Below are positions 7,275 through 36,718 of a stretch of 44,320 nucleotides of DNA, piece by piece. The notes under the pieces were generated by a model. It ran no database searches, was not told the DNA's origin, and worked only from the letters and a program-made list of their open reading frames with translations. A program made the position numbers and the translations under genes. Every line of letters begins with the position of its first letter. The stretch's first letter is position 1. Source of the DNA: Escherichia phage vB_EcoA_fTuEco01; sequence record MZ031013.1. The stretch is one strand, 5' to 3'.

Positions 7275-9263
7275 ATGGCTATTATTCAGAATGTACCGTG
7301 TCCTGCTTGCCAAAAGAACGGACATGATATTACTGGCAATCATTTAATGATCTTTGACGACGGGGCAGGATACTGTAACCGTGGTCACTTCCATGATAAC
7401 GGTAAACCTTATTACCACAAGCCAGGGGGTGGCATCGAGATAACCGAATTGCCTATTACTGGCAATATCAAATATACACCTTCTCAATTCAAAGAAATGG
7501 AGAAGGAAGGGAAGGTAAGCGACCCTAAGTTGCGCGCCATCGCACTTGGTGGTATGCGTATGAAAGACCGTTGGGAGGTTATGAATGAGCAAGAAAGGGC
7601 AGACCAAGAAGCAGAGTGGAAACTTGATGTTGAATGGTTCCTCACGCTTAAGCGTAAGAATCTTGTTTCCCGACACATTCGCGGCGACATTTGCGCATTG
7701 TATGATGTACGTGTCGGACACGATGAAGATGGTAGAGTCTCACGGCATTACTATCCACGCTTCGAGAAAGGTGAGCTAGTAGGCGCTAAGTGTCGCACAT
7801 TACCTAAAGACTTTAAGTTTGGTCATTTAGGTAAACTCTTTGGTATGCAAGATCTTTTCGGTATGAATACTTTGTCTCACGTGTTAGACAAGGGAAGACG
7901 AAAGGATTGCTTGCTTATTGTAGGTGGTGAACTTGATGCACTAGCAGCACAGCAAATGCTCCTTGATTCTGCCAAGGGTACTAAGTGGGAAGGCCAGCCT
8001 TACCATGTATGGTCTGTCAATAAAGGTGAGTCTTGCCTTGAAGAGATAGTACAGAACCGTGAACACATCGCCCAATTTAAGAAGATTATATGGGGTTTTG
8101 ATGGCGACGAGGTGGGGCAGAAGCAGAATCAGCAAGCGGCTCGCCTGTTTCCTGGCAAATCCTATATCCTTGAATACCCTTCTGGTTGCAAAGATGCTAA
8201 CAAGGCATTGATGGCTGGCAAGGCTAAAGAGTTTGTTGATGCTTGGTTTAATGCCAAGTCATCTGATGAAGTCTTTGGTAGCCAGATTAAATCTATCGCA
8301 TCTCAAAGGGATAAGCTCAAGGCTGCACGTCCAGAGCAAGGACTATCATGGCCTTGGCCTAAGCTGAACAAGGTAACGCTAGGTATTCGTAAGAACCAGC
8401 TTATCATTGTAGGTGCAGGTTCTGGTGTAGGTAAGACTGAGTTCCTCCGCGAAGTGGTTAAACATCTCATTGAAGAGCACGGTGAATCTGTAGGCATCAT
8501 TTCTACAGAAGACCCGATGGTCAAGGTGTCCCGTGCTTTTATCGGTAAGTGGATTGATAAGCGCATTGAGTTACCGCCAACCAATGACCCGAAAGAAGAC
8601 GGATACCGTGAGGTGTTCGACTACACCGAGGAAGAAGCTAACGCTGCCATTGATTATGTGGCTGATACAGGAAAGCTATTTGTGGCTGACCTAGAAGGCG
8701 ACTATTCTATGGAGAAGGTAGAGCAAACTTGCCTAGAGTTTGAGGCTATGGGCATTTCTAATATCATCATTGATAACTTAACGGGGATTAAATTAGATGA
8801 GCGTGCTTTTGGTGGGAAGGTTGGTGCACTTGATGAATGCGTCAAACGAATTGGTACTATCAAAGACCGACATGCGGTTACGATTTTCCTTGTCTCTCAC
8901 CTTACACGTCCTCCGGCAAACCGTACCCAACACGAAGAAGGTGGCGAAGTTATCCTTTCTGACTTCCGAGGCTCAGGCGCTATCGGATTCTGGGCATCTT
9001 ACGCCTTGGGGATTGAGCGTAATACAAGAGCTGAAACGCTTGATGAAAGGACTACCACGTACATCTCGTGTGTCAAAGACCGCGATCAAGGTATCTACAC
9101 TGGAACCAAGGTCATGCTTAAGGGTGACATTCAAACCGGACGTTTAATGGAACCACAAGCTAGAACAAGGTCATTTGATACAGGTGAAACAAGGCAGCAA
9201 GAGGTGCCTGATTTACCGGACACTATAGAAGAGACAACCTTTGACGATGAACAGGAGTTTTAA
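7275..9263 (+). CDS. DNA primase/helicase (T7 gene 4-like), 662 aa
   Basis: N-terminal zinc ribbon CPACQ...CNRGH; Walker A GAGSGVGKTEF; acidic C-terminus DDEQEF ending in Phe, as in T7 gp4 (...TDF). Confidence 0.95.
   Translation: MAIIQNVPCPACQKNGHDITGNHLMIFDDGAGYCNRGHFHDNGKPYYHKPGGGIEITELPITGNIKYTPSQFKEMEKEGKVSDPKLRAIALGGMRMKDRWEVMNEQERADQEAEWKLDVEWFLTLKRKNLVSRHIRGDICALYDVRVGHDEDGRVSRHYYPRFEKGELVGAKCRTLPKDFKFGHLGKLFGMQDLFGMNTLSHVLDKGRRKDCLLIVGGELDALAAQQMLLDSAKGTKWEGQPYHVWSVNKGESCLEEIVQNREHIAQFKKIIWGFDGDEVGQKQNQQAARLFPGKSYILEYPSGCKDANKALMAGKAKEFVDAWFNAKSSDEVFGSQIKSIASQRDKLKAARPEQGLSWPWPKLNKVTLGIRKNQLIIVGAGSGVGKTEFLREVVKHLIEEHGESVGIISTEDPMVKVSRAFIGKWIDKRIELPPTNDPKEDGYREVFDYTEEEANAAIDYVADTGKLFVADLEGDYSMEKVEQTCLEFEAMGISNIIIDNLTGIKLDERAFGGKVGALDECVKRIGTIKDRHAVTIFLVSHLTRPPANRTQHEEGGEVILSDFRGSGAIGFWASYALGIERNTRAETLDERTTTYISCVKDRDQGIYTGTKVMLKGDIQTGRLMEPQARTRSFDTGETRQQEVPDLPDTIEETTFDDEQEF
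9211..9231 (+). promoter_or_regulatory. Phage RNAP promoter embedded in the 3' end of the primase/helicase gene
   Basis: ATTTACCGGACACTATAGAAG is a perfect consensus; in frame it encodes LPDTIEE. Confidence 0.7.
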
Positions 9264-9424
9264 TGGAAATTATTAAACCAGTATTGAATATCGGTATTGA
9301 AATCCTATTCATGCTTGTGATCGCAGATTATGCTGCACGATATGGATTCAAGAAAGCTGTGAAACTTATCGTTGCATCTGGTTTTATGATGTCAATGTTC
9401 TTTATTGTAACACGCCTTATCTAG
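9263..9424 (+). CDS. Hypothetical small membrane protein, 53 aa, two hydrophobic segments
   Basis: TAATG stop-start overlap with the helicase gene; ILFMLVIADYA and SGFMMSMFFIV hydrophobic stretches. Confidence 0.45.
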   Translation: MEIIKPVLNIGIEILFMLVIADYAARYGFKKAVKLIVASGFMMSMFFIVTRLI

Positions 9425-9437
9425 TGTATTTATCAGG

Positions 9438-9461
9438 GCTTGTCTCACATGTGAGACAGGC
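9438..9461. repeat. Conserved palindrome (gcttGTCTCACATGTGAGACaggc), copy 3, extended stem followed by a T-rich run
   Basis: Core 9442..9457 is perfect; the flanks extend the stem to about 10 bp; followed by TCTTATT. Terminator-like. Confidence 0.7.
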
Positions 9462-9496
9462 TCTTATTAAGTACATTAAATAACTGGAGATTGATT

Positions 9497-10180
9497 ATGT
9501 ATAAATTAGTATTGAATGCAGGTGATTATGTTCGTAACATCAATGCAACCTCACGTAGATATCGTTGCCGTGGTACTGTGACTAATGTAAGTGAAAACAG
9601 CTACTATGTAGAGTACAGTAATGGTATTAGACAGGCTTATCAAAAGGAATCAGCACATAACTACCTTGAGAAGATTGGAGAGGTAAGCAATCAATGTAAG
9701 TGCGTACACGATGAGATTTGCGATAAGTGTGCCCGCCAGATGCATAAAATGCTATTATACCCTCTTCGCTATGGTGCTGGCATTCAAACCTTAGCAGAGG
9801 CATATGGCAAAGGTAAGACTACACTTAATAAAGATCGCCGCAATGTAATCACTGGTAAGACTCAAAGTGAAATGATTAAGCAGTGTGGCACTGCACTAGG
9901 TGTTACGCAGTTTAACACTCGTGCTCTTGGTAAATCCACAGGACAAGCTATGGTAAAGATTGGCGAAGCCATGATGCATCCAAATGTACCTGTGCGAATC
10001 ATGGATGTTGACCATGCAATCACAGAACACGGTACACCACGACGTGTAGCTAATAAGCATTTTGCCGACACTATAGAAGGTGTTATCCGTAAGCAAGGGT
10101 TGAAAGGTCTTCACCTCTTGAATGGTGAAGAATTACTGTATCTCCCTATTGTTACTGAAGAAACCTACGTGAATATTTAA
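9497..10180 (+). CDS. Hypothetical protein, 227 aa, Cys-cluster (CKCVHDEICDKC), possible zinc-binding / DNA-binding
   Basis: ATG at 9497 with GGAGA upstream (the track starts at a TTG at 9491). An embedded promoter-like core lies at 10058..10079. Confidence 0.55.
   Translation: MYKLVLNAGDYVRNINATSRRYRCRGTVTNVSENSYYVEYSNGIRQAYQKESAHNYLEKIGEVSNQCKCVHDEICDKCARQMHKMLLYPLRYGAGIQTLAEAYGKGKTTLNKDRRNVITGKTQSEMIKQCGTALGVTQFNTRALGKSTGQAMVKIGEAMMHPNVPVRIMDVDHAITEHGTPRRVANKHFADTIEGVIRKQGLKGLHLLNGEELLYLPIVTEETYVNI
10058..10079 (+). promoter_or_regulatory. Weak phage-type promoter embedded in coding sequence (TTTTGCCGACACTATAGAAGG)
   Basis: Core CGACACTATAGAAG is conserved, the upstream AT-rich recognition region is degenerate; in frame it encodes ADTIEG. 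Confidence 0.35.
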
Positions 10181-10190
10181 GGAGTTAATC

Positions 10191-10406
10191 GTGACTAAAG
10201 TTCTAATTTATAAACAACGAGGTCTTAAGGCTTATGCTATTGTAGCACCAAATGGTGTTAAAAAAGTAAGTTGTAAGCCTCTTGCAATAAAAGGTGCAGG
10301 TATGTCTGCTAACTTCCAATTGCAACTTTTTGGCAATTTCACAGAAGCGCAATTCCGCAATAAACATGAAGTTATTGGTTCTTTTATGGTGAAACATGCA
10401 GAATAA
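10191..10406 (+). CDS. Hypothetical protein, 71 aa
   Basis: GTG start 7 nt after an AAGGAG RBS. Confidence 0.5.
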   Translation: MTKVLIYKQRGLKAYAIVAPNGVKKVSCKPLAIKGAGMSANFQLQLFGNFTEAQFRNKHEVIGSFMVKHAE

Positions 10407-10605
10407 ACACAGCCTTAAGATGTTTGATGGTCACGAAGACCTGCAAGCACACATCACTAACCAAGCCTTCCTGTTTGCACAGTTAACTATGGCTGAAGCA
10501 AAGAAGAATAGCCTGACACGCGAGCAGGTTATCAAGGAGGCTACTTGGGAGCCACACCAAGGTAAATATATGGGCCATAAATTAACTGTAACACGCAGTC
10601 GATAA
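10396..10605 (+). CDS. Hypothetical protein, 69 aa
   Basis: ORF track entry; overlaps the upstream gene by 11 nt. Confidence 0.45.
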   Translation: MQNKHSLKMFDGHEDLQAHITNQAFLFAQLTMAEAKKNSLTREQVIKEATWEPHQGKYMGHKLTVTRSR

Positions 10606-10611
10606 GTCAAG

Positions 10612-10635
10612 GGTTGTCTCACACGTGAGACAGCC
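10612..10635. repeat. Conserved palindrome variant (ggttGTCTCACACGTGAGACagcc), copy 4
   Basis: Stem arms gtctca and tgagac are conserved, with a CACG centre variant. Confidence 0.65.
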
Positions 10636-10662
10636 TTTCATCATGTTGATTGGAGGTGCATT

Positions 10663-10770
10663 ATGCCACGTGATTATGATTCTGATTGGGACTACTATGA
10701 CTCAATGAATCCAAAACCCGAACGTTCAGATGATTACTACGAAACAGAGGCAATGTATGAAGATTACTGA
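10663..10770 (+). CDS. Hypothetical small acidic protein, 35 aa (MPRDYDSDWDYYDSM...)
   Basis: ATG at 10663 with a GGAGGTG RBS. Under 60 aa. Confidence 0.35.
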   Translation: MPRDYDSDWDYYDSMNPKPERSDDYYETEAMYEDY

Positions 10771-13303
10771 TTGGAAGAAGGAGGCAAAAGGCCGTATCCT
10801 AGTAATGGATGCGGAGGCTAAAGGTCTGCTTGATGCCATCCGATATGGACACCGCGAAGATGTGCATATCATTTGCTGCATGGACTTGCTTACTACTGAG
10901 GAGTTCCTCTTCTTTGACCCATATGAGATGCGTGACCCTGAAGCAAGGGAGCGCCTGAAGGAATGGGAAGGGCATCAAGATGGTGACTTGGTTGATGGTG
11001 TTAACTTCCTGAAGCACTGTGAAGCTATCGTGTCACAGAACTTCCTAGGATATGACGGTCTTCTCTTTGAGAAAGCATTCCCTGCTATCTGGAAAGGTTT
11101 TAACTATACCGAGAGGCGAGGCAAGGGCAGACTCCGCGCTGACCTGTGTCCTGTGCGAGTCATGGACACGCTGGTGATGAGTCGCCTGTTAAACCCCGAT
11201 AGGCGCCTCCCTCCGCAAGCATACGCCAAAGGTATGGGTAACGTCGCCCCTCACTCAATTGAGGCGCACGGCATTCGTATAGGCCGTTATAAGCCGGAGA
11301 ACGAGGATTGGTCTAAACTAACTGACCACATGGTACATCGTGTACGCGAGGACGTGGCGATAGGCCGTGACCTATTCCTCTGGCTATTTAACGGAGAATG
11401 GACGGAGCACAAACGCCGTGGCGTGAATAAACGCACTGGCCTAGGTATTGAGACAGCCTTCCACATGGAGTCCATTGTGGCGCTGGAGATGAGCCGTCAG
11501 GCCGAGCGTGGATTCCGTCTGGATATAGATAAAGCATTAGCACGATGCGAGGAATTGGACGCTAAGATTGATGAGACAGTCGCAGCGTTCCGTCCGCACA
11601 TGCCTATGCGTATCAAGTCTAAACCTTTTAAACCGGAAGAAAAGAATGAAGTATGCCAACGCGCAAATGAGTATGGAGCTAGCAACAATATACCTACTGT
11701 TCTTGACCCCTCTCACTTTCTTCACGCAGAGAGACGAGGGGATCGCAAGACAGTATGGAGTGTCACTACTAAGTCTGGTGATTGGTCGGCTAGCGTCAAG
11801 AAAGACTTTCCTCACCTTAGAGGAAACCGTAATGACACGCCAAGCATCAAGTGGATTGGCGCTTACTCGCCTGTTACTTTCGAAGAAATTCCCTTGGGTA
11901 ACAGGGATACAGTTAAGCAAGTGCTCTATGATTATGGATGGAAAGGTGTTGAATTTAACGATACCGAGCAAGCGCATCTCGATGAGCATGGCGTATTACC
12001 CAAGCCTTGGAGTGGGAAGATAAATGAAAAGTCCCTTACTTTATGGCAAGAGAGAGCCGCACGTGAAGGTAAAACAGTCCCTGATTGGTGCTTGGGTATC
12101 GCTGCATGGTACATACTCGTATCCCGTCGTGGTCAGATCCTCAACCGTGGTGACGTTGAAGCCTTCGACCAGAAGGGGGTGTGGCCTTCGCAAGCTGGTA
12201 TACGAAAGTGTCGCGGCCTTGTACCTGTAGCATTTAACAAGGAGTTAGGAATCAATGCGCAGCAATACTACGAAAGGTACGGATGCTGGCCTACGTCAGA
12301 CAAGGATGACGGAGAATGGCGTGTGCCAGCTATTGCTATTAGTATTGGAACTTCTACGTTCCGTATGCGTCATCGTAACGTGGTTAATATTCCTGCCCGT
12401 GGTTTGTATCCTTTACGTGATTTATTCATAGCCGGTAAAGGTAAGCTAATCCTTGGTTGTGATGGTGCTGGTCTTGAACTACGTGTCCTGTCTCACTTCA
12501 TGAATGACCCTGAATATCAAGATATTGTACTGCATGGTGACATTCACACCCATAATCAAATGAAGGCTGGTCTTCCTAAGCGTGACATGGCGAAGACATT
12601 TATATATGCCTTCCTATATGGGTCTGGTATAGCTAACCTTGCAGCAGTATGTGGTGTTACTGAGGAAGAAATGGAGGAAGTTGTGGCAAGATTTGAGGTT
12701 GAACTACCATCTCTTGCACGTCTTCGTGAGAATGTTATCGCACAAGGTAACAAGTTTGGCTACCTACAAGCACCTGATGGTCATTGGGGTCGCATCCGTA
12801 TGTCTGGTGGTGAACTTAAAGAGCACACTATGCTTAACGTACTACTACAGATGACTGGTTCTCTGTGTATGAAATACGCATTGGTCAGAGCGTTTGCAGT
12901 GATGCGCAAGGAAGGTGTGGCCTTAGATAGCATGGGAAACCCTTGCGGTATAGCTAACGTGCACGATGAAATCCAGATGGAAGTCCCTGAAGATGAGGTC
13001 TTGTATCTCAACTACGACTTGCCTTTCACCTTAGAAGGGTTCGAAACAGAGAAGGCTGCTGTGAAAGCAGTGTTCGATGCAGAGGAGAAACGTGTTCATG
13101 TAGATTCTGAAGGACGTATGTGGTCTGCTGCAAATCTCGTTAGCGTTGATGCTGATGCTGGTGTACTTCATTGCCAGCGTCGCTATCACCGTGCAGGGCA
13201 TATCATTGCCGACGCAATGACTTGGGCGGGTCAGTATCTGAAGATGCGTTGTCCGATGGCAGGTGAGTATAAGATTGGTGCAAGTTGGAAGGAAACACAC
13301 TGA
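10757..13303 (+). CDS. DNA polymerase, family A (T7 gene 5-like), about 848 aa
   Basis: 3'-5' exonuclease motif (ILVMDAEAKG), pol motif A (DGAGLELRVLSHF), motif B (KTFIYAFLYGSG) and motif C (VHDEIQMEV). Start chosen at ATG 10757 (MKITDW); the track starts upstream at 10730. Confidence 0.93.
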   Translation: MKITDWKKEAKGRILVMDAEAKGLLDAIRYGHREDVHIICCMDLLTTEEFLFFDPYEMRDPEARERLKEWEGHQDGDLVDGVNFLKHCEAIVSQNFLGYDGLLFEKAFPAIWKGFNYTERRGKGRLRADLCPVRVMDTLVMSRLLNPDRRLPPQAYAKGMGNVAPHSIEAHGIRIGRYKPENEDWSKLTDHMVHRVREDVAIGRDLFLWLFNGEWTEHKRRGVNKRTGLGIETAFHMESIVALEMSRQAERGFRLDIDKALARCEELDAKIDETVAAFRPHMPMRIKSKPFKPEEKNEVCQRANEYGASNNIPTVLDPSHFLHAERRGDRKTVWSVTTKSGDWSASVKKDFPHLRGNRNDTPSIKWIGAYSPVTFEEIPLGNRDTVKQVLYDYGWKGVEFNDTEQAHLDEHGVLPKPWSGKINEKSLTLWQERAAREGKTVPDWCLGIAAWYILVSRRGQILNRGDVEAFDQKGVWPSQAGIRKCRGLVPVAFNKELGINAQQYYERYGCWPTSDKDDGEWRVPAIAISIGTSTFRMRHRNVVNIPARGLYPLRDLFIAGKGKLILGCDGAGLELRVLSHFMNDPEYQDIVLHGDIHTHNQMKAGLPKRDMAKTFIYAFLYGSGIANLAAVCGVTEEEMEEVVARFEVELPSLARLRENVIAQGNKFGYLQAPDGHWGRIRMSGGELKEHTMLNVLLQMTGSLCMKYALVRAFAVMRKEGVALDSMGNPCGIANVHDEIQMEVPEDEVLYLNYDLPFTLEGFETEKAAVKAVFDAEEKRVHVDSEGRMWSAANLVSVDADAGVLHCQRRYHRAGHIIADAMTWAGQYLKMRCPMAGEYKIGASWKETH

Positions 13304-13420
13304 TGGACAGGTTTGATATTGTTTGCCTATTCTCCACCTTCTTTCTTATATTCCTTATGCTTGCTTGCTATGGAAGTATGCGATTAGATATACCTGATGA
13401 AGAGGAGGGTTACGATTGAT
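13304..13420 (+). CDS. Hypothetical hydrophobic peptide, 38 aa
   Basis: TGATG overlap with the polymerase stop; FSTFFLIFLMLACY transmembrane-like segment. Confidence 0.3.
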
Positions 13421-13517
13421 GCAGGCATCTTTTATTATTCTTGGAGTCATATTATTTATGGTAGTATTCTGGGCTTTCTCTGGCATTGACCCAGATTGTG
13501 ATGGTAACTACGACTGA
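13419..13517 (+). CDS. Hypothetical hydrophobic peptide, 32 aa
   Basis: TGATG overlap with the previous ORF; IILGVILFMVVFWAF transmembrane-like segment. Confidence 0.3.
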   Translation: MQASFIILGVILFMVVFWAFSGIDPDCDGNYD

Positions 13518-13585
13518 GTTATACTCAAGGTCACTTACGAGTGGCCTTTATGAATAACTTATTCCTACTTATTTTGTCTAACATG

Positions 13586-13606
13586 ATTTACTGGACACTA
13601 TAGAAG
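13586..13606 (+). promoter_or_regulatory. Phage RNAP promoter (ATTTACTGGACACTATAGAAG)
   Basis: Perfect consensus. Confidence 0.8.
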
Positions 13607-13607
13607 G

Positions 13608-13672
13608 AAAGCCTAGGTAATCTAGGTTTATAAGGTAGTATAGGTAATTAAGTAAATATAGGAGATATAAAT
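13608..13672. repeat. AT-rich TAGGTWA-repeat block downstream of a promoter
   Basis: gcctaggtaatctaggtttataaggtagtataggtaattaagtaaatataggagat; similar blocks occur at 6961..7020 and 38650..38702. Confidence 0.5.
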
Positions 13673-14050
13673 ATGTCTATGGTAACTACTCTGGTATTCG
13701 TGGCTCAATACTTTCGTGGTCTTGCTAATAAGTTCAAGTCCAAGGCTATCAAAGCTATTGAGGCTCGCATCGAAGCAGTACAGGCAGAGCAAGTTAAAGT
13801 TGAAGAACATCGTAGTTCTCAAATGATTGACTGTCATAACCGCTACTATGCATCTCGTGATGAACTAAATGCACGTCAAGTCAAAGAGGTAGAAGATATG
13901 CTGGCACGTCACCAGCAAGAGCGTGACAGCCTGAAAGCTGAATTTGAAGAGAACAAGGCATCAATTGCCCTTGTAAATCAAGCTGCATCTGACAGCCTGA
14001 AGAAAGAGATTGTTATGCTGGAAATAGAACTGGACAACTTGACTAAATAA
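13673..14050 (+). CDS. Hypothetical coiled-coil protein, 125 aa
   Basis: Strong T7 gene-10-like RBS (ataggagatataaatATG); heptad-like charged sequence. Confidence 0.6.
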   Translation: MSMVTTLVFVAQYFRGLANKFKSKAIKAIEARIEAVQAEQVKVEEHRSSQMIDCHNRYYASRDELNARQVKEVEDMLARHQQERDSLKAEFEENKASIALVNQAASDSLKKEIVMLEIELDNLTK

Positions 14051-14056
14051 GGAGTT

Positions 14057-14356
14057 ATGATGGAAGAAGTGATTCAAGCTAAACATGTAGGTATCATCTT
14101 TCGTGATCTAGAGCAGCGTAAAGTTGCAGGTCACACTCGTCTGGCTAAAGAAGACGATACAGCAATCACTACTGTGGAACAAGCAGATGCCTATCGTGGT
14201 CCAGAGTTTACTCAAGGTGAAACTTGTCATCAATTGAGCCTTTCGCTTTGTGACACTATGGCTAGTGTAAATGTACAAGAGGTTGAAGATGGTGAATGTG
14301 TTAGTTATGTCTACCCTCTCGATACTATTGCACGTATTAAGGTAGTTCATAAGTAA
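14057..14356 (+). CDS. Hypothetical protein, about 98-99 aa
   Basis: AAGGAG RBS; ATG at 14057 or 14060. Confidence 0.55.
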   Translation: MMEEVIQAKHVGIIFRDLEQRKVAGHTRLAKEDDTAITTVEQADAYRGPEFTQGETCHQLSLSLCDTMASVNVQEVEDGECVSYVYPLDTIARIKVVHK

Positions 14357-14375
14357 TTACTGGACACTATAGAAC
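14355..14375 (+). promoter_or_regulatory. Phage RNAP promoter (AATTACTGGACACTATAGAAC)
   Basis: Consensus match; overlaps the stop codon of the upstream ORF. Confidence 0.7.
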
Positions 14376-14433
14376 AATAGGTCGGCTTAGTTCGGCCTAT
14401 GATTGTGTAGTGTAACAATAGGAGACTAAATAA

Positions 14434-15240
14434 ATGGCACGTGGTGATTTTGATTTTGGTGCTCAGGTTACTAAAGCTGAAGGTAAAGTATTTAAGAACC
14501 CTGAAGTTGGTGATCATGAAGCAGTAATCTCTGGCATCATTCATGTTGGTTCCTTCCAAGATATCTTTAAGAAAGGTAATACCACTGAAGTTAAGAAGCC
14601 AGCAAACTTTGTTCTTGTTAAAATTACCCTGATGGGCGACGATGACAAGAATGAAGATGATTCTCGCATGGAACAGTGGATGGCTGTGCCCTTGAAGTCT
14701 GGTGACAAGGCAACTCTTACTAAGTTCCTGAATGCAGTGGACCCTAAAGAATTGCTGGGTGGCTTCGATGATTTCATCGGTGAATGTCTGACTGCAACTA
14801 TGGTTGGCTCTGGTGATAAGAATGACGATGGCTCATTCAAGTATGTTAACTGGAAAGGATTTGGTGGTATGCCTGACAAGCTGAAGAAACTGGTCATTGC
14901 TCAGGTAGAAGAGGAAGGTCTGTCTATGACAGGTCATATCACCTTCGACAAGCTGACCAAAGAAATCCTTGATGACATCCCAGCTAACTTGGTACGTCAA
15001 TACTTCCTGAACGAGACACCTCGTGGTAAGAACCTGTCTGTTGCTGGCTCTCACGTAGAAGCTATTATCAAAGCTGCTCGTGAAGAAGACCCTGAATGGA
15101 AGAAGGCTAAGAAGAAAGACGAGGAAGATGCTACCCCAGCTAATCGTAAATCTCTGGATACTGGTGAGCCTGTTCCACAGGAAGTACCTGAAGCAGAAGA
15201 TACTCCTGCACCGGAGATGGATGAGGACGCGGAATATTAA
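14434..15240 (+). CDS. Putative ssDNA-binding protein (T7 gp2.5-like role), 268 aa, acidic C-terminal tail ending in Tyr
   Basis: Highly expressed codon usage and a C-terminal acidic tail ...EMDEDAEY resembling the T7 gp2.5 tail (...DEDGDF), in the replication module. Functional assignment is by analogy only. Confidence 0.4.
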   Translation: MARGDFDFGAQVTKAEGKVFKNPEVGDHEAVISGIIHVGSFQDIFKKGNTTEVKKPANFVLVKITLMGDDDKNEDDSRMEQWMAVPLKSGDKATLTKFLNAVDPKELLGGFDDFIGECLTATMVGSGDKNDDGSFKYVNWKGFGGMPDKLKKLVIAQVEEEGLSMTGHITFDKLTKEILDDIPANLVRQYFLNETPRGKNLSVAGSHVEAIIKAAREEDPEWKKAKKKDEEDATPANRKSLDTGEPVPQEVPEAEDTPAPEMDEDAEY

Positions 15241-15249
15241 GGAGAACGG

Positions 15250-15468: not shown

Positions 15469-15469
15469 A

Positions 15470-15485: not shown

Positions 15486-15500
15486 AAATCGGTGTCCGGT

Positions 15501-15523
15501 ATTTACTGGACACTATAGAAGAG
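15501..15523 (+). promoter_or_regulatory. Phage RNAP promoter (ATTTACTGGACACTATAGAAGAG)
   Basis: Perfect consensus. Confidence 0.8.
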
Positions 15524-16037: not shown

Positions 16038-16062
16038 CGTAATAGTTATTGGAGAATGAATT

Positions 16063-17671: not shown

Positions 17672-18671
17672 GCTCCGCAGCTTGTACAAAGACTCCGAGG
17701 TACTTGATGCAATCGAGCAAGCTACCGACGAGAAAGGTAATGTTAACTACAATGAGATGGCACGTGTATTATCGTGTCATCCTGTGGGTAAGAAGATTAC
17801 CCGCCAGTTGGCTCGATACTGGCATGGTCAATTCAAGAAGACCAAGAAGAATGGTGATTACTACCAGACTCTTCTGCAAGAGGATAAGCGTATCAAAGAA
17901 GAGCGTAAGCTCAGGACTCCTGACCGCTATGAGGATTTGGCTATTGTACCACTGCCTGACTCGCCTCATCGAAGTGTACTGGTAATTCCTGACACTCATG
18001 CACCTTACGAGCACCCAGATACATTAGAGTTTCTGGCAGCGGTGGCAGCACGTTACCGTCCAGACACTGTAGTTCATCTTGGTGATGAGGCAGATAAACA
18101 TGCCTTATCGTTCCACGATTCAGACCCCAATCTTGATAGTGCTGGCATGGAGTTAGAGAAGGCCCGTGTCTTTATGCATAAATTACACAAGATGTTTCCT
18201 GTGATGCGCCTGTGTCATTCTAATCACGGCTCTATGCACTTCCGTAAGGCAAGCACCAAAGGTATTCCTGTACAATATCTGCGTACCTATCGTGAAGTCT
18301 TCTTCCCGCATGGGGGTGGCGACCAGTGGGATTGGCAGCATACACACGTTCTTGAGTTGCCGAATGGTGAACAGGTTGCATTTAAGCATCAACCCGCAGG
18401 CTCAGTCTTAGCAGATGCAGCGCATGAGCGCATGAACTTAGTGTGCGGTCACTTGCATGGTAAGATGTCTGTGGAGTATGCACGTAATACACATGAACAG
18501 TATTGGGCTGTGCAGGGCGGCTGTTTGATTGATGAGTCATCTCGTGCATTTGCCTATGGTCGTGAGTCCAAATACAAGCCAGCATTAGGTTGTGTGGTTA
18601 TTCTGGAGGGTGTGCCGCACATTGTCCCGATGCAGACCAATAATGACAATCGCTGGATTGGTAAAATTTAG
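17664..18671 (+). CDS. Calcineurin-like metallophosphoesterase with an N-terminal extension of about 100 aa, about 335 aa
   Basis: Motifs in order: IPDTHAP (D-x-H), HLGDEADK (G-D-x-x-D), CHSNHG (G-N-H-like), CGHLHG (G-H-x-H). TTG start at 17664 lies 6 nt after AAGGAGG; the track starts at 17631. Confidence 0.7.
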   Translation: MGKLRSLYKDSEVLDAIEQATDEKGNVNYNEMARVLSCHPVGKKITRQLARYWHGQFKKTKKNGDYYQTLLQEDKRIKEERKLRTPDRYEDLAIVPLPDSPHRSVLVIPDTHAPYEHPDTLEFLAAVAARYRPDTVVHLGDEADKHALSFHDSDPNLDSAGMELEKARVFMHKLHKMFPVMRLCHSNHGSMHFRKASTKGIPVQYLRTYREVFFPHGGGDQWDWQHTHVLELPNGEQVAFKHQPAGSVLADAAHERMNLVCGHLHGKMSVEYARNTHEQYWAVQGGCLIDESSRAFAYGRESKYKPALGCVVILEGVPHIVPMQTNNDNRWIGKI

Positions 18672-18686
18672 TTGACACTATAGAAC
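18666..18686 (+). promoter_or_regulatory. Phage RNAP promoter variant (ATTTAGTTGACACTATAGAAC)
   Basis: Consensus match with variation in the -12 to -9 region; overlaps the stop of the upstream gene. Confidence 0.65.
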
Positions 18687-23747: not shown

Positions 23748-23768
23748 ATTTACTGGACACTATAGAAG
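23748..23768 (+). promoter_or_regulatory. Phage RNAP promoter upstream of the major capsid gene
   Basis: ATTTACTGGACACTATAGAAG, perfect consensus. Confidence 0.85.
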
Positions 23769-25032: not shown

Positions 25033-25040
25033 TACCTATG

Positions 25041-25075
25041 CCCTATCTACCTTGCGTAGGTAGGGTTCTTTTTGT
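25041..25075 (+). terminator. Rho-independent terminator after the capsid gene (T-phi analogue)
   Basis: ccctatctac-cttgc-gtaggtaggg forms a 10-bp stem followed by TTCTTTTT. Confidence 0.75.
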
Positions 25076-31896: not shown

Positions 31897-31910
31897 TACC
31901 TAACTCAAGG

Positions 31911-31932
31911 CTTGTCTCACATGTGAGACAGG
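31911..31932. repeat. Conserved palindrome (cttGTCTCACATGTGAGACagg), copy 6, followed by TCTTTA
   Basis: Perfect 16-bp core at 31914..31929, lying between two internal virion protein genes. Confidence 0.7.
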
Positions 31933-31960
31933 TCTTTATGATAGGCACTATGGAGGAACT

Positions 31961-34900
31961 ATGGAACAAGATATTAAGACTAATTGGGCTGGATATGTCC
32001 AGTCTACTCCTGAGCCGTTTTCTATTGAGGCGGCTCCGGTATCGGCTCCTACGATACGCCAGCGTAATGAGTTACAAGAGCAAGTTCTTGAAGCCAAAGC
32101 TGATGCGGACATCTTAGGTGCTGTAGGTGCTGCCTTCCAGAATGAATGGTTGGCATTCGGAGGTAAGCGATGGTATGACCGTGCCACTGCTGATTTCACA
32201 CCCCAACCTGACTTTGAAATCCAACCAGAGCAACGTGAAGCTCTTCGCTTCAAATACGGAACGGATATGATGCAGACAATCACTGAGGGTGTTCGTTCTG
32301 AGGATGAATTAAACTTCCGTATTCAGAATGCTGATGAAGACCTTGAGCGCAATAAGCGCATTGCTCAGGCTGGATGGGCTGGCTCTGTGGCAACGATTGG
32401 CGCTGCTGTGCTTGACCCAGTGGGTTGGGTTGCCTCTATCCCAACTGGCGGTGCAGCCAAAGTCGGCCTCGTAGGTCGTGCCGTGCGTGGAGCTATCGCC
32501 GCTGGCGTGAGCAATGCCGCTATTGAATCCGTGTTAGTACAAGGCGACATGACTCGTGATTTAGATGACATTATGGTAGCACTAGGCTCCGGTATGGCTA
32601 TGGGTGGCGTTATTGGCGCTGTAGCGCGTGGTAGGGCCACTAAGCTCAGTGAGCAAGGAGATGACAGGGCTGCGAGTGTTGTGCGCAGTGCAGACGCAGG
32701 GGACCGCTATGTGCGTGCTGTTGCTGATGACAGTATCGGTGCGATGCGTGTTAAGGGTGAAGAGGTACTCACTGAGGGTGCATTTGATATCTCTAGCAAA
32801 GGTGAAGATTTGCTGAAAACCCTACAGCGGGAAGGTAATGCAATTGATATGACACCTCGCCGCTGGGCCGGAACTATGTCTGCCCTTGGGACTGTCGTGC
32901 ACTCCTCTCAGGATGCTAGTGTTCGTGGCCTCGGTGCTCGCCTGTTTGAGTCTCCGCAAGGTTTAGGTATGCAAAAGGCATCTGCCAGTCTTATGCAGAA
33001 TACCAACTTGAATCGACTGAAGTCTGCTGATATGAACCGTTTCAATGACGGGTTTGACTTATGGCTCAAAGAGAATAATATCAATCCAGTTGCAGGCCAT
33101 ACTAACTCTCACTATGTGCAACAATATAATGAGAAGGTATGGGAAGCTGTACGCATCGGTATGGATGAGTCTACGCCTAAGTCTATCCGTATGGCAGCAG
33201 AGGGACAGCAAGCTATGTATCGTGAAGCATTAGCATTACGTCAACGCTCTGGTGAAGCTGGGTTTGAAAAGGTTAAAGCAGATGATAAGTACATGCCTGA
33301 TATTTTTGACAGTATGAAGGCTCGTCGTCAATTTGGTATGCACGATAAGGAGGACATCATTGAGCTATTCTCTCGTGCATACCAGAATGGTTCTCGTAAG
33401 GTTCCAAAGGAAGTGGCTGATGAGATTGCACGTGCACAAGTAAACCGTGTTGTGGATGCTACTCTGACAGGACGTATGAGTTTCGAAAAGGCTATGTCTG
33501 GTCAGACTAAAGCAGAGTATGAAGCAATAATGCGCAAGGCAGGCTTCAGTGATGAAGAAATTGAAAAGATGGTAGAAGCTCTGGATAATAAAGAAACCAG
33601 AGATAATATCTCTAACCGAGCTAAGATGAGTTTAGGCTTAGATGTTACTCAAGAGTACAATGGCATTCGTATGCGTGACTTTATGAATACTAACGTGGAA
33701 GAGTTAACAGATAACTACATGAAGGAAGCGGCAGGTGGTGCTGCCTTGGCTCGTCAAGGTTTCTCTACCTATCAGGCTGCACTTAATGCAATTGACCTTG
33801 TAGAGCGAAATGCACGAAATGCAGCTAAAGATACAAAAGCACACGCACAATTCGAAGCAGAGTCTGCTAAGATTCGTCAATCAGAGCCTGATTACAAGAA
33901 GGCACAAGCGAAGATTGAAGAGTTAAAGAAGCGACTTAAATTGAAAGAGAAAGACGAAGCAGCGGGTCTGGCTATTGATGAGGAAATCCGTCAGATGCGA
34001 GAAGGGCTTCGCTTGATTATGGGTAAATCTATCGATGCAGACCCACAGGCTTTATCTACTAAAATGCTGCGTCGTGGTCGTGACATTACAGGTGTACTTC
34101 GCTTAGGTCAGATGGGCTTCGCACAGCTAGGTGAACTTGCTAACTTCATGGGTGAGTTTGGTATTGCTGCAACCACTATAGCTTTAGGTAAGCAATTCCG
34201 CTTTACATCTAAGGCTTTGCGGAGCGGTGATGGCTTCTTCCGAGATAAGAACTTGGCAGAAGTAGAGAGGATGGTAGGTTACATTGGTGAGGATAACTGG
34301 CTAACAACCAAGGGTGCACGTCCAGATGAGTTTGGTGATGTAACCACAGTAAGAGGGATGATGGCTCACTTTGACCAATCCATGAACTCAATACGTCGTG
34401 CTCAGACCAACCTATCACTCTTCCGCATGGCACAGGGTTCTCTGGAGCGAATGACCAATAGGCAAATAGCTTTGTCTTTCATTGACCACCTTGAAGGCAA
34501 GAAGATTATTCCTCAGAAGAAACTGGAGGAACTTGGTCTTACTCAGGAGTTCATGACTAATCTACAGAAGCACTATGATGCTAACTCTAAAGGTTCTGGC
34601 TTGCTTGGCTTTGATACAATGCCTTATGCCATGGGTGAAACTTTAGCTAATGCTATTCGTCGTAAGTCAGGTCTAATTATCCAACGTAACTTCATTGGTG
34701 ATGAAGGTATCTGGATGAACAAAGCACTAGGTAAGACATTTGCACAGCTTAAGTCATTCTCTCTTGTATCTGGTGAGAAGCAATTTGGTCGAGGGATTCG
34801 CCACGATAAAATTGGTCTTGCTAAGAAGACAGCTTACGGGTTTGCTTTGGGTTCAATAGTGTATGCGGCAAAAGCCTATGTGAACTCTATTGGGCGAGAA

Positions 34901-35269
34901 GACCAAGATGAATATTTGGAAGAGAAGTTATCGCCTAAAGGGTTGGCCTTTGGTGCAATGGGTATGATGAGTACAACTGCTGTATTTAGTCTAGGTGGAG
35001 ATTTCTTAGGTGGCCTAGGTGTTCTACCTTCTGAGTTAGTACAATCCCGTTATGAGGCTGGCTTTCAGACTAAGGGTTTGATAGACCAAATACCACTAGT
35101 AGGTGTTGGTCAAGATGCATATCGTTTAGCAGATTCTATAACTAAATATGCAGAGGGTGATACAGAAGGTGTAGATGTGGCACGTAGGGCTTTACGCTTA
35201 GTGCCTCTAACTAATGTAATAGGAATCCAGAACGCATTGCGTTATGGCTTAGATGAACTGGAGGATTGA
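31961..35269 (+). CDS. Internal virion protein, largest core/ejection protein (T7 gp16-like role), 1102 aa
   Basis: GGAGGA RBS; size and position; no lytic transglycosylase motif recognised in it. Confidence 0.7.
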   Translation: MEQDIKTNWAGYVQSTPEPFSIEAAPVSAPTIRQRNELQEQVLEAKADADILGAVGAAFQNEWLAFGGKRWYDRATADFTPQPDFEIQPEQREALRFKYGTDMMQTITEGVRSEDELNFRIQNADEDLERNKRIAQAGWAGSVATIGAAVLDPVGWVASIPTGGAAKVGLVGRAVRGAIAAGVSNAAIESVLVQGDMTRDLDDIMVALGSGMAMGGVIGAVARGRATKLSEQGDDRAASVVRSADAGDRYVRAVADDSIGAMRVKGEEVLTEGAFDISSKGEDLLKTLQREGNAIDMTPRRWAGTMSALGTVVHSSQDASVRGLGARLFESPQGLGMQKASASLMQNTNLNRLKSADMNRFNDGFDLWLKENNINPVAGHTNSHYVQQYNEKVWEAVRIGMDESTPKSIRMAAEGQQAMYREALALRQRSGEAGFEKVKADDKYMPDIFDSMKARRQFGMHDKEDIIELFSRAYQNGSRKVPKEVADEIARAQVNRVVDATLTGRMSFEKAMSGQTKAEYEAIMRKAGFSDEEIEKMVEALDNKETRDNISNRAKMSLGLDVTQEYNGIRMRDFMNTNVEELTDNYMKEAAGGAALARQGFSTYQAALNAIDLVERNARNAAKDTKAHAQFEAESAKIRQSEPDYKKAQAKIEELKKRLKLKEKDEAAGLAIDEEIRQMREGLRLIMGKSIDADPQALSTKMLRRGRDITGVLRLGQMGFAQLGELANFMGEFGIAATTIALGKQFRFTSKALRSGDGFFRDKNLAEVERMVGYIGEDNWLTTKGARPDEFGDVTTVRGMMAHFDQSMNSIRRAQTNLSLFRMAQGSLERMTNRQIALSFIDHLEGKKIIPQKKLEELGLTQEFMTNLQKHYDANSKGSGLLGFDTMPYAMGETLANAIRRKSGLIIQRNFIGDEGIWMNKALGKTFAQLKSFSLVSGEKQFGRGIRHDKIGLAKKTAYGFALGSIVYAAKAYVNSIGREDQDEYLEEKLSPKGLAFGAMGMMSTTAVFSLGGDFLGGLGVLPSELVQSRYEAGFQTKGLIDQIPLVGVGQDAYRLADSITKYAEGDTEGVDVARRALRLVPLTNVIGIQNALRYGLDELED

Positions 35270-36231
35270 TGAGTTATACTTTCACAGAACATATAGCCAA
35301 CGGTACGCAAGTAACCTATCCCTTTAGATTTGCTGGCAGGGATAAAGGCTATCTTCGTGCCTCAGATGTGATAGTGGAATCTCTTCAAGGTAACACTTGG
35401 ATTGAGGTTACATCTGGCTGGCAATTAACTGGTACGCATCAAATCACTTTTGATGTAGCACCTGTTGCAGGTTTGAAGTTCCGTATTCGAAGGGAAGTAC
35501 AAAAGGAATATCCATACGCTGAGTTTGACCGTGGTGTTACCTTGGATATGAAGTCTTTAAATGGCTCTTTCATTCATATACTGGAGATTACACAGGAGTT
35601 ACTTGATGGGTTTTATCCAGAAGGATACTTCATTAAGCAGAATGTAAGCTGGGGCGGCAATAAGATTACTGACCTAGCTGATGGTGAGAATCCAAAAGAT
35701 GCAGTAAATAAATCACAGCTAGATGCTATCGACAAGAAGCATACTGATTGGAACTCTGCACAAGATATAGAGATTGCTGGTATTAAGAGAGGAATGGTGT
35801 CTGGTGTATCTCATCGCACTATTCCTTGGTATATGGTCGCCTCCGGTGGAGAGCAAATCATTCGACCACCTTACTCATTTGATGATGCTATGGTGTTTAT
35901 AAACGGTGTATTCCAGCATGAACTAGCAGGTGCAGTATCAGTGGGGTATGATGTTATAACCCTGTCCGAGCCATTACAGGCTGGGGATGAAGTTTATGTG
36001 CTTATCGGTAGTCGCTTAACCCCACCTACAAGTGCGGATACTATCCTCTTTACACAAGCAGTGAGTGAAGGTACACAATCTATCGACATTGTAACGGCTT
36101 TCCAACGTCTTGATGTATACTTGGATGGCCTGTATCAACCTAATAATGCTTATGAAATCGTAGGGTCTACTATCACTTTCAGTGAGCCATTACCTGAGTG
36201 TGTCGTAAGTATGAAGCTACAACTAGTGTAA
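35269..36231 (+). CDS. Tail-fiber-like adaptor protein (homologous to the N-terminal tail-attachment domain of T7 gp17), 320 aa
   Basis: TGATG overlap; pattern ...GGNKITDLADGENPKDAVNKSQL resembles T7 gp17 ...RIVNLANAVDDRDAVPFGQL. Too short to be a full fibre, so probably anchors the tailspikes. Confidence 0.65.
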   Translation: MSYTFTEHIANGTQVTYPFRFAGRDKGYLRASDVIVESLQGNTWIEVTSGWQLTGTHQITFDVAPVAGLKFRIRREVQKEYPYAEFDRGVTLDMKSLNGSFIHILEITQELLDGFYPEGYFIKQNVSWGGNKITDLADGENPKDAVNKSQLDAIDKKHTDWNSAQDIEIAGIKRGMVSGVSHRTIPWYMVASGGEQIIRPPYSFDDAMVFINGVFQHELAGAVSVGYDVITLSEPLQAGDEVYVLIGSRLTPPTSADTILFTQAVSEGTQSIDIVTAFQRLDVYLDGLYQPNNAYEIVGSTITFSEPLPECVVSMKLQLV

Positions 36232-36240
36232 GGAGGTGAG

Positions 36241-36435
36241 ATGATTAACTCCGAACTGGTAGATAGTGGTGTGAAGCTGGCGCCACCTGCATTAGTATCA
36301 GGTGGGTACTTCCTCGGTATCAGTTGGGATAATTGGGTGTTAATAGCAACATTCATTTATACCGTGTTGCAAATTGGAGACTGGTTTTATACCAAGATTA
36401 AACTATGGAGGAGGAGCCGTGAGCGTACACAATAA
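36241..36435 (+). CDS. Holin-like small membrane protein, 64 aa
   Basis: AAGGAGGTG RBS; hydrophobic WVLIATFIYTVLQIGDWFY segment and highly basic C-terminus KIKLWRRSRERTQ; position equivalent to T7 gene 17.5. Confidence 0.5.
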   Translation: MINSELVDSGVKLAPPALVSGGYFLGISWDNWVLIATFIYTVLQIGDWFYTKIKLWRRSRERTQ

Positions 36436-36718
36436 ACATGCAGCTACGGAAGACGAGGTTGGCATTCTACATGGTGCTATTACCAAAATCTTTAATAAGA
36501 AAGCACAGGCAATACTGGACACTATAGAAGAAGACCCAGATGCAGCACTGCATTTAGTCTCTGGTAAAGACATTGGAGCTATGTGTAAGTGGGTTCTTGA
36601 TAATGGTATTACCGCTACACCCGCTGCACAGCAGGAGGAGTCCAAGCTATCTAAGCGCCTCAAGGCTATCCGAGAGGCATCAAGTGGCAAGATTATTCAA
36701 TTCACTAAGGAGGATTGA
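36419..36718 (+). CDS. Putative terminase small subunit, 99 aa
   Basis: GTG start 5 nt after GGAGGAGG; lies immediately upstream of, and is translationally coupled (TGATG) to, the large terminase gene. Confidence 0.45.
   Translation: MSVHNKHAATEDEVGILHGAITKIFNKKAQAILDTIEEDPDAALHLVSGKDIGAMCKWVLDNGITATPAAQQEESKLSKRLKAIREASSGKIIQFTKED
36510..36530 (+). promoter_or_regulatory. Phage RNAP promoter embedded in the putative small terminase gene
   Basis: CAATACTGGACACTATAGAAG; in frame it encodes ILDTIEE. Confidence 0.6.

Follow-up and report, generated by a model that had tools for sequence, protein, structure and literature searches.

Three genes of Escherichia phage vB_EcoA_fTuEco01 quite probably carry, inside their coding sequences, copies of the promoter read by the phage's own single-subunit RNA polymerase. 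In all three the promoter core is read GAC-ACT-ATA-GAA, in frame with the host ORF, and appears in the protein as Asp-Thr-Ile-Glu (DTIE). The window (the whole 44,320-nt stretch that was analysed) is a near-complete K1E/K1-5-like coliphage genome (Vectrevirus); a comparison of its positions 7000–11000 with K1E gives 97% identity. Three in-frame promoters reading DTIE had been proposed in a first-pass annotation, and as sequence features they are confirmed here: the spans 9211..9231 (site 1, primase/helicase gene), 10059..10079 (site 2, 227-aa protein gene) and 36510..36530 (site 3, small terminase gene), all on the + strand, correspond to promoter positions −17 to +4, and at each site this entire span lies inside an open gene with annotated homologues in K1-5 and SP6. 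The gene labels given there also stand, based on alignment of the helicase to T7 gp4, matches of the small terminase to PF11123 and phrog_891, and assignment of the 227-aa protein to phrog_6703 (function unknown). Promoters would be placed within genes because the genome is so tightly packed that non-coding space is lacking at these points.

The core from −9 to +3, GACACTATAGAA, occurs in 10 exact copies in the window, where 0.25 would be expected, and in one further copy with 1 mismatch. All are on the + strand, co-oriented with the genes, and three are entirely within genes: those in the primase/helicase tail, the 227-aa protein and the small terminase. Non-coding reference promoters identified by core match and PWM are located at 6901..6921 (ATTTACCGGACACTATAGGAT), at 13586..13606, 15501..15521 and 40959..40979 (each with the consensus sequence), and upstream of the capsid gene at 23748..23768; AATT variants are found at 14355..14375 and 38615..38635, and the variant ATTTAGTTGAC at 18666..18686 (all +). 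A PWM trained only on the eight non-coding copies, with the embedded sites left out and scored afterwards, gives 35.0 bits for site 1, 22.6 for site 2 and 26.0 for site 3. Non-coding promoters score 30.4–37.6 bits, the minus-strand maximum is 12.5 and shuffled sequences have a mean maximum of 9.2. Site 1 is a full consensus match. Sites 2 and 3 score below every non-coding promoter; both match fully across the core (−9 to +4) and partially upstream, where site 2 departs from consensus at −13 to −10 and site 3 at −17 to −15.

The cognate polymerase for these promoters is the product of the ORF at 4181..6808 (+), a single-subunit enzyme of 875 aa whose K1-5 homologue is annotated as RNA polymerase and whose alignment with T7 RNAP covers the specificity loop. 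The consensus family ATTTA[C/G]..GACACTATAGAAG is common to the window and to SP6, K1-5 and K1E (SP6-like Autographiviridae, Molineuxvirinae); the window is another member of this promoter group and differs from it in nothing essential. Promoter lists for SP6 and K1-5 were reportedly published with their genomes; the GenBank records carry no promoter features. In K1-5 the corresponding embedded sites are at 9018 and 35496. In SP6 the helicase site is at 8419 and a second embedded site, in gene 11, is at 9120; there is no terminase site, and gene 36 contains an additional one in frame.

Codon usage argues that the DNA motif, not the peptide motif, is what has been selected, and this explains the occurrence of DTIE. 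The tetrapeptide is found three times in the window's proteome (0.19 expected) and nowhere beyond the three promoter sites. Its copies share the same 12 nucleotides, with a probability of 0.012 each for these codons given DTIE, and every copy uses ATA, a rare codon that accounts for 13% of isoleucines. Three other DTI tripeptides in the window are written with different codons.

The shared reading frame, by comparison, is statistically weak evidence. All three sites do use the same frame, as had been claimed, but this is largely explained by the promoter itself: read in frame +1 (G ACA CTA TAG), the core contains a stop, which leaves two frames usable inside a gene. The probability of finding three of three sites in one named frame is then 1/8, and of finding them all in the same frame 1/4. 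Among relatives, five independent embedding events can be counted, and all five are in the frame starting at −9 (p ~0.03). A complete promoter within a gene would thus be possible in two frames, and the one used spells D-T-I-E after L or I-L.

The three sites differ in age and history. Third-codon-position diversity (π3) of the promoter codons ranks in the lowest 3.0% of same-size segments for the helicase and in the lowest 4.1% for the 227-aa gene; at site 3, synonymous conservation within the genus is not significant (lowest 19%).

Site 1 (ATTTACCGGACACTATAGAAG; GAC at 9219, predicted +1 G at 9228) is read D-L-P-D-T-I-E-E (..VPDLPDTIEE..) near the end of the primase/helicase gene (7275..9263, +; 662 aa, identified by T7 gp4 alignment and K1-5 annotation). 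Residues 162–607 of the helicase align to T7 gp4 residues 112–529, and DTIE (residues 649–652) is located in an acidic tail beyond this aligned part. The predicted transcript leader (9228..9265, +) would have the last 12 helicase codons doubling as 5′ UTR; it contains a Shine-Dalgarno sequence, AGGAG, at 9253–9257, and the helicase stop overlaps the start of the next ORF (9263..9424, +; family match to phrog_15806) as TAATG. In K1-5 the helicase site carries a synonymous C-to-T change at −7.

In at least nine related lineages this spot of the helicase gene is occupied, in the same frame, by a promoter with the lineage's own, different consensus. The resulting tail peptides follow the lineage's promoter (RTIE, TTIE, ATIE, AGIE, PSIE and CTIE); examples are ACTTAGGGCGGACTATAGAAC, read DLGRTIEQ, CAATAGTGGCGGGTATAGAAG, read PIVAGIEE, and ATATGTGTTGCACTATAGAAG, read DMCCTIED. 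Each tail promoter matches non-coding copies ~2.1–2.7 kb upstream, the best match is to the lineage's own promoters in eight of nine cases, and in an alignment that includes T7 RNAP the specificity loop of the RNAP varies along with the promoter consensus from lineage to lineage. In the promoter-less lineages L019 and L104 the helicase tail is unrelated in sequence and has no motif. Homologues under another promoter consensus therefore lose DTIE, as would be expected if the promoter dictates the peptide, and show the peptide of their own promoter, or none where the promoter is absent. The leader segment can also persist apart from the helicase. Vectrevirus NIC06P3 has an inserted HNH-like gene and a helicase that ends in a different tail, with the old 53-nt promoter-plus-leader segment still intact downstream, uncoupled from the helicase reading frame.

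Site 2 (ATTTTGCCGACACTATAGAAG; GAC at 10067, predicted +1 G at 10076) is read H-F-A-D-T-I-E-G in the gene at 9497..10180 (+; ORF 9491/9497, 227 aa counted from the ATG), a homologue of K1-5 gp10 and SP6 gp11. Its core is intact in all 25 Vectrevirus sequences, whose host proteins are 75–92% identical, and a homologue 70% identical to the 227-aa protein has AAIVNH in place of the site. Five lineages with 66–77% identity, one of them with a different promoter type, share a 17-nt block, TTACGTGACACTATAGG, without a single change; in the gene that carries it, conservation is higher downstream of the block.

Site 3 (CAATACTGGACACTATAGAAG; GAC at 36518, predicted +1 G at 36527) is read A-I-L-D-T-I-E-E in the small terminase gene (36419..36718, +; ORF 36374/36419, 99 aa). 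DTIE forms residues 34–37, where the first predicted helix ends in a structure model of low to moderate confidence (pLDDT 59). The site is specific to Vectrevirus, where the core is intact in 21 of 24 sequences and changed in the other three (GAT, GGC and G at +3). Relatives carry ATCCTCGATGCTATCGAG, read ILDAIE, which the nearest of them write as ATC CTC GAT GCT ATC GAG. Site 3 is set apart from these by changes that all lead towards the promoter, five synonymous and one a replacement, and the probability of ATA CTG GAC ACT ATA GAA given ILDTIE is 3 × 10⁻⁴. The pattern A-I-L-x-x-I-E is conserved far beyond the promoter-bearing genus, and D is common there; the SP6 small terminase has AAVE. 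As judged from these alignments, L, I and E (often also D) are older residues of the terminase family, the promoter was built on a pre-adapted helix, and it imposes only T and the choice of codons. The proposal that the promoter forces DTIE on its hosts thus holds only in part for the small terminase.

The predicted start points are the G residues at 9228, 10076 and 36527. Downstream of the helicase, the small genes and the gene for DNA polymerase would receive extra transcripts from sites 1 and 2; the PWM scan identified no promoters between 7103 and 13594 besides these two. Site 3 could act as a booster for the large terminase gene, 11.6 kb past a terminator-like hairpin (25040..25075, +) that lies directly 3′ of the capsid gene and resembles T7 Tφ, with an 11-bp stem followed by a T-run. 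Between this hairpin and the large terminase gene the scan found no promoter-like site besides site 3. A search of the literature for transcript-start (5′-end) data found none for Vectrevirus or Zindervirus.

The dual coding and regulatory constraint originally proposed is real, but needs correction in that it runs both ways. The core overrides the protein at tolerant positions, namely the disordered acidic tail of the helicase and two exposed positions of the terminase helix. Conversely, at sites 2 and 3 conserved residues (H-F of the 227-aa protein and A-I of the terminase) keep the upstream, AT-rich half of the promoter from reaching consensus, and the two sites can therefore be viewed as compromise promoters. 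Sites 2 and 3 are probably the weaker promoters, as we infer from their scores. The core changes at site 3 in three of 24 genomes, together with the K1-5 C-to-T change, indicate that no site is indispensable.

An alternative that we regard as unlikely is that only the helicase site works, with sites 2 and 3 inactive or nearly so, as fossils or as neutral by-products that the proteins tolerate. The low scores of these two sites (22.6 and 26.0 bits, where no non-coding promoter falls below 30.4) are in keeping with this, as are the location of the deviations in the upstream recognition region and, for site 3, the sporadic core mutations and non-significant synonymous conservation. There is also precedent for fossils of the wrong specificity. 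An SP6-type site, the counterpart of site 2, persists in the gp11 homologue of the L030/L090 lineage, and another in the gp36 homologue of phage PM93, though both have different promoters of their own; at the L030/L090 site there is thus no co-variation with polymerase specificity. Because these sites mismatch the resident polymerase, conservation alone is no proof of present function. On the other hand, the site 2 core is invariant in a gene whose protein is only 75–92% identical, with synonymous diversity in the lowest 4%, and the five promoter-ward synonymous changes at site 3, including the rare ATA, are hard to obtain without selection on DNA. Both sites are also positioned where no other promoter serves the downstream genes.

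It is much less probable that the embedded sequences are kept for a DNA role other than mRNA synthesis, either replication priming through polymerase binding or as recombination junctions between mosaic genomes. T7 uses promoters at its replication origin, the TTACGTGACACTATAGG block is identical even in a lineage with a different promoter type, and a recombination and insertion boundary adjoins site 1 in NIC06P3. Against this, site 1 tracks polymerase specificity and is directly followed by a conserved leader and Shine-Dalgarno sequence, both of which fit an mRNA promoter, and no AT-rich, origin-like region was seen after the sites. Hardly tenable is the idea that DTIE is a functional protein motif with only secondary likeness to a promoter: the terminase I-E and preceding L are conserved even in promoter-less family members and LRDTIG is retained in L030 gp11 despite its different promoter type, but the comparative data contradict a conserved motif, since the peptide varies with promoter type (or disappears with the promoter, as in the helicase), is replaced by AAIVNH and AAVE in homologues of the other two hosts, and has invariant codons not shared by other DTI tripeptides, and the three host proteins are mutually unrelated.

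With promoter copies embedded in genes as the preferred reading, a broader proposal can be made, somewhat tentatively: the C-terminal tail of the helicase may be a protein-level record of promoter specificity across the SP6-like subfamily, and weaker embedded sites elsewhere may have been frozen as older SP6-type fossils after a switch in specificity, as in L030/L090 gp11 and PM93 gp36. The residues before the conserved I-E of the tail would then be the translation of positions −15 to −4 of the resident promoter. If this is correct, and taken with the apparent rule of the −9 frame, the order of polymerase–promoter specificity switches could be reconstructed from coding sequences, and the places where new promoters can arise could be predicted. 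Dual-use codons in general have one stretch of DNA specifying both amino acids and a protein-binding site, with suppressed synonymous variation and biased codon choice. The case here differs in that the phage polymerase, which acts as the regulatory reader, has a different specificity from one lineage to the next, and the imposed peptide therefore changes predictably.

Embedded promoters are a known kind of arrangement in T7/SP6-like phages, and those described here are comparable to T7 φ4c, likewise a phage-polymerase promoter inside the primase/helicase gene. In T7, genes end 15 nt before the +1 of φ1.3, 1.5, 1.6, 2.5, 4.3, 9 and 17, with the promoter TAA at −17 to −15 serving as the stop codon. 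The window similarly shares promoter bases with stop codons: at 14355 the AA at −17/−16 is the last two bases of the upstream gene's TAA (14354–14356), at 18666 the TAG at −14 to −12 is the stop of the upstream gene (18669–18671), and at 38615 two bases are common with the TAA of the large terminase gene (38614–38616). T7 φ4c is mid-gene and in a frame that would contain stops, and there it is the promoter that gives way: it reads CAA TCC GAC TCA CTA AAG AGA, where CAA has replaced TAA at −17 and AAG has replaced TAG at −2. In the window, by contrast, it is the protein that yields: the core remains perfect and occupies the other open frame. A further difference from φ4c is that the helicase site is located in the C-terminal tail, at a position conserved across the whole subfamily.

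Over positions 7000-11000 the window shares 97% identity with Escherichia phage K1E and 90-97% with dozens of Vectrevirus genomes, and its large ORFs are all on the + strand in the same order as in K1-5 and SP6. It therefore represents the nearly complete genome of an SP6-related podophage of the K1E/K1-5 type, with a single-subunit RNA polymerase encoded at 4181..6808. There are ten exact copies of GACACTATAGAA and one copy with a single mismatch, all of them on the + strand, compared with 0.25 expected; the consensus of the full promoter set is ATTTACTGGACACTATAGAAG. Copies with their GAC at 9219, 10067 and 36518 lie in frame within genes and are read as Asp-Thr-Ile-Glu (DTIE), as the first-pass annotation had proposed, and the spans it gave correctly delimit promoter positions -17 to +4 (numbered from the predicted start G at +1). 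Site 1 (9211-9231, +) is in the primase/helicase gene (7275..9263; VPDLPDTIEE), site 2 (10059-10079, +) in the gene for a 227-aa protein (9497..10180; HFADTIEG) and site 3 (36510-36530, +) in the small terminase gene (36419..36718; AILDTIEE). These gene labels are also correct: the helicase aligns with T7 gp4, the 99-aa small terminase matches PF11123 and phrog_891, and the 227-aa protein belongs to phrog_6703, a family of unknown function.

The remaining eight strong promoter copies comprise five in non-coding spacers and three that overlap the preceding gene's stop codon. TAA stops (14354..14356 and 38614..38616) occupy positions -18 to -16 of the promoters at 14355 and 38615, which explains their shared 'AATT' variant, and a TAG stop (18669..18671) at -14 to -12 of the promoter at 18666 explains its C-to-G variant at -12. 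Overlaps of these kinds are also found in SP6, PM93 and PYH-2, and are analogous to the many T7 promoters in which a TAA at -17 to -15 doubles as the upstream stop codon. That T7-type promoters can overlap coding sequence was recognized when the T7 genome was annotated.

The promoter sequence occurs within these genes more often than chance would allow. DTIE is found three times in the window proteome, versus 0.19 expected, and is encoded by the identical 12 nucleotides every time. Given DTIE, the probability of these codons is 0.012 per site; ATA accounts for only 13% of Ile codons, and the three other DTI tripeptides are encoded by GATACTATT, GATACTATC and GACACCATC. The weight that the first-pass annotation placed on the shared reading frame was too great. 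Translated in three frames, the consensus reads (N/D/H/Y)-L-L-D-T-I-E, I-Y-W-T-L-stop and F-T-G-H-Y-R; only two of these stay open through a gene, and finding three of three sites in one frame therefore has p = 1/8, which by itself is weak evidence.

A frame scan with per-genome promoter models, covering the window, K1-5, SP6, phiEa100, PM93, PYH-2 and all fetched comparison loci, placed all five independent events of a promoter fully inside a real gene in the first frame; the F-T-G-H-Y-R frame had no such site (p ~0.03). The events are the helicase tail, gp10/gp11 (the 227-aa protein), the small terminase, SP6 gene 36 (locus L002, 29393..29413; TLGDTIGA; 24.9 bits) and the PYH-2 internal virion protein (locus L118, 9184..9204; ELVARIEE; 25.2 bits), the last two being absent from homologues elsewhere. 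A true preference for the first frame is plausible but not established; L-L-D-T-I-E would fit amphipathic helices and acidic tails, and G-H-Y-R would not. Four sites flagged by an ORF heuristic were rejected as embedded promoters, there being no real gene at their positions: phiEa100 820 (frame c, in an unannotated ORF), PYH-2 37049 and 27592, and position 1282 of locus L025.

An alternative to a promoter constraint would be that the proteins themselves require DTIE. For the helicase, relatives of the C-terminus were fetched from viral and metagenome collections, and ~30 nt 5' of the helicase stop each lineage has a promoter matching its own consensus, with the frame unchanged: ATTTACCGGACACTATAGAAG (DLPDTIEE) in Vectrevirus, AATTAGGTGACACTATAGAAG (ELGDTIEE) in SP6, AATTAGAGACCACTATAGAAG (ELETTIEE) in PM93-like phages, CAATAGTGGCGGGTATAGAAG (PIVAGIEE) in PYH-2-like phages, AATTACCACCCAGCATAGAAG (ELPPSIEE) in Era103-like phages, and ACTTAGGGCGGACTATAGAAC (DLGRTIEQ), AAATAGGGGCTACTATAGAAC (EIGATIEQ) and ATATGTGTTGCACTATAGAAG (DMCCTIED) in loci L020, L022 and L030, respectively. 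A check proposed earlier was whether homologues with a different promoter consensus lack DTIE; they do, their tails reading RTIE, TTIE, ATIE, AGIE, PSIE or CTIE according to their own promoters. The helicase-site motif of every lineage listed is also present in non-coding DNA 3' of its polymerase gene, and at the variable positions -13 to -5 the helicase site is best matched by promoters of its own lineage in 8 of 9 cases. The specificity loop of the RNA polymerase varies in step with the promoter across lineages. Where no promoter is present, the helicase tails are unrelated (L019, EEGEVTGADETQEF; L104). Thus, as polymerase specificity switched among related phages, the imposed peptide changed predictably, and this co-change separates DNA-level from protein-level constraint with no need for an experiment.

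Conservation within the genus is consistent with a constraint on the DNA at site 1, which is intact in 22 of 25 Vectrevirus sequences; the other three are K1-5, with C-to-T at -7, and two sequences that differ synonymously at -10. An initial test of synonymous sites with 11–14 sequences was underpowered (Fisher p = 0.26-0.31, third positions). With 11 more Vectrevirus genomes and metagenome loci, and diversity computed in sliding windows, the seven promoter codons have a third-position diversity of 0.031 (mean for the gene, 0.179), which ranks among the lowest 3% of windows. DTIE constitutes residues 649-652 of 662, in an acidic tail that terminates in ..EF and that we take to be similar to the polymerase-binding tail of T7 gp4. 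Assignment of this region as a probable flexible tail rests on its sequence variability and on the T7 gp4 alignment, which stops at residue 607; a single-sequence AlphaFold model of the C-terminal domain has a pLDDT of 35, too low to inform. The final helicase codons also contain a Shine-Dalgarno sequence, AGGAG (9253-9257), and overlap the start of the following gene at TAATG. Judged from these comparisons of sequence, site 1 almost certainly works as a promoter. The K1-5 copy (locus L001, 8320..8340) reads GATACTATAGAA; its -7 change is synonymous, leaves DTIE unchanged and probably weakens or inactivates the promoter.

The two functions have been uncoupled naturally in Vectrevirus NIC06P3 (OZ035778.1). 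Its helicase has a replaced tail, VPDENTGELNEETSEF, with no promoter, and is followed by an insertion (locus L111, 17894..18420) with a 163-aa ORF that has weak HNH_3 and I-HmuI-like matches, below Pfam cut-offs. The former helicase 3' segment, ATTTACCGGACACTATAGAAGAGACAACCTTTGATGATGAACAGGAGTTTTAATGG, persists intact downstream, and 23 codons of the old helicase tail remain after the inserted ORF. The retained promoter and the 3' end of the inserted gene overlap, with the promoter read in the 'stop' frame (ATT TAC CGG ACA CTA TAG, I-Y-R-T-L-stop), so the gene is terminated by the promoter's own TAG at -2 to +1. Since the segment is intact outside the helicase, the promoter and leader are kept for their own sake, and since the helicase has another tail, it does not need DTIE.

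At site 2, the core GACACTATAGAAG is present in all 25 Vectrevirus sequences, among which the 227-aa protein is only 75-92% identical, and for third-position diversity the site ranks in the lowest 4% of windows. A 70%-identical homologue from a phage with SP6-type promoters reads NFAAIVNH and lacks the site, and distant homologues have neither DTIE nor the promoter. The ATTT at -17 to -14 comes from CAT TTT, the conserved H-F codons, and the Ala codon GCC that follows moves -12 to -10 off consensus (22.6 bits on a matrix built from the eight non-coding copies of the window). In SP6-type phages a better-formed site, GTATTACGTGACACTATAGG, read as VLRDTIG, is offset by a few codons. Taken together, the sequences suggest that site 2 is probably a working, weaker promoter. 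One finding is discordant: loci L030 and L090 now have ATTTGTGTTGCACTATAGAAG as their own promoters and nonetheless retain an SP6-type 17-mer in the gp11 homologue, perfectly conserved in an alignment that is 66-77% identical elsewhere. PM93 (L117) similarly retains SP6-type sequence in its gp36 homologue. The retained sequence, GACACTATAG, lies at L030 4441..4461, at L090 ~2941..2961 and in the PM93 gene, and the promoter cores of these phages differ from it (TTGCACTATAG and GACCACTATAG). Such sites may be fossil promoters or recombination junctions; because embedded sites can thus outlive the cognate polymerase, conservation is not proof of present activity. The longest perfectly conserved run of nucleotides in the gp11 alignment is TTTAACCCTATCGTTACGGAGGAAAC, the last ~26 nt of the gene (window ~10150..10177), where the ribosome-binding site for the following gene also lies, a further case of dual use.

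That the promoter imposes DTIE is right in essence, in that the promoter and not the protein explains the motif, but is overstated for the small terminase, where an A-I-L-x-x-I-E pattern is found family-wide and far outside the promoter-bearing genus (AILDAIE, AILDSIE, AILDVIE, AILNEIE, AILKNIE, ALLALIE and, in SP6, AILAAVE). The codons ATA CTG GAC ACT ATA GAA are confined to Vectrevirus (probability 3e-4 given ILDTIE), and the nearest outgroups have ATC CTC GAT GCT ATC GAG; the promoter was thus built on a pre-adapted helix, which took five synonymous changes and a single replacement of Ala by Thr. In a model of moderate confidence (pLDDT 59), DTIE forms residues 34-37 of a helix spanning 11-38, and D and T would be the two variable positions of the helix pattern; a sequence search of the PDB returned no relatives. 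The conserved A-I keeps -17 to -15 as CAA rather than ATT (26.0 bits). Within the genus site 3 is less well protected: the core is changed in 3 of 24 sequences, and synonymous diversity is not significantly low. A strong terminator-like hairpin (25040-25075; 11-bp stem followed by TCTTTTTGTT) is located directly 3' of the major capsid gene, where T7 has Tphi, and site 3 is the sole promoter-like element between it and the large terminase gene, 11.6 kb on. Site 3 is probably functional as a weaker promoter, and its position would fit a booster for the large terminase.

In T7, the reference case, a different compromise is seen at phi4c, which lies within gene 4 in the stop-containing frame and has changes in both codons that would have been stops (CAA..., ...AAG). 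In that case the protein prevails over the promoter, whereas in the window the core is perfect and the protein yields; it is the upstream half of the promoter that yields to conserved residues. K1-5 and SP6 have the same embedded sites; both the promoter family to which the elements belong and the phage group have therefore been described before. The GenBank records of K1-5 and SP6 contain no promoter features. Literature searches on embedded T7-type promoters, polymerase–promoter co-evolution and transcript-start mapping in this group returned nothing specific. Promoter tables for SP6, K1-5 and K1E were also sought, and papers on SP6-like genomes gave sigma-70 predictions or promoter counts only. 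Outside the original SP6 and K1-5 genome papers, we found no description of the peptide–promoter co-variation, the fossil sites or the frame bias.

Embedded promoters are ordinary features, for which comparison between lineages gives a neat account. They leave the understanding of phage transcription unchanged and provide a clean natural case of two readers of one stretch of DNA. There are three practical consequences: (i) synonymous recoding or 'refactoring' of therapeutic phages of the K1E/K1-5/SP6 type would silently destroy the promoters at sites 1–3; (ii) the conserved ..TIE.. in the helicase tail should not be taken for a functional protein motif during annotation and (iii) for uncultured SP6-like phages, embedded sites can help to deduce promoter specificity from the sequence of one gene.

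Further promoter-like sequences flank the polymerase gene. A degenerate second copy, ATTTACCGGACAGTATAGATA, lies at 7095..7115 (GAC at 7103), ~190 nt 3' of the promoter at 6901..6921. Tandem post-polymerase promoters with one core mismatch each are present in every related lineage, and resemble phi1.1A and phi1.1B at the primary replication origin of T7. In the early region, 5' of the polymerase gene, ATTTAGCTGACACTATAAGAG (2855..2875; 22.4 bits) and ATTTACTTACCACTATATAAG (3203..3223; 19.9 bits) are changed at or near +1; T7 phiOL also has an A at +1. Both window sites are conserved in K1-5, and SP6 has a similar site at 2113.
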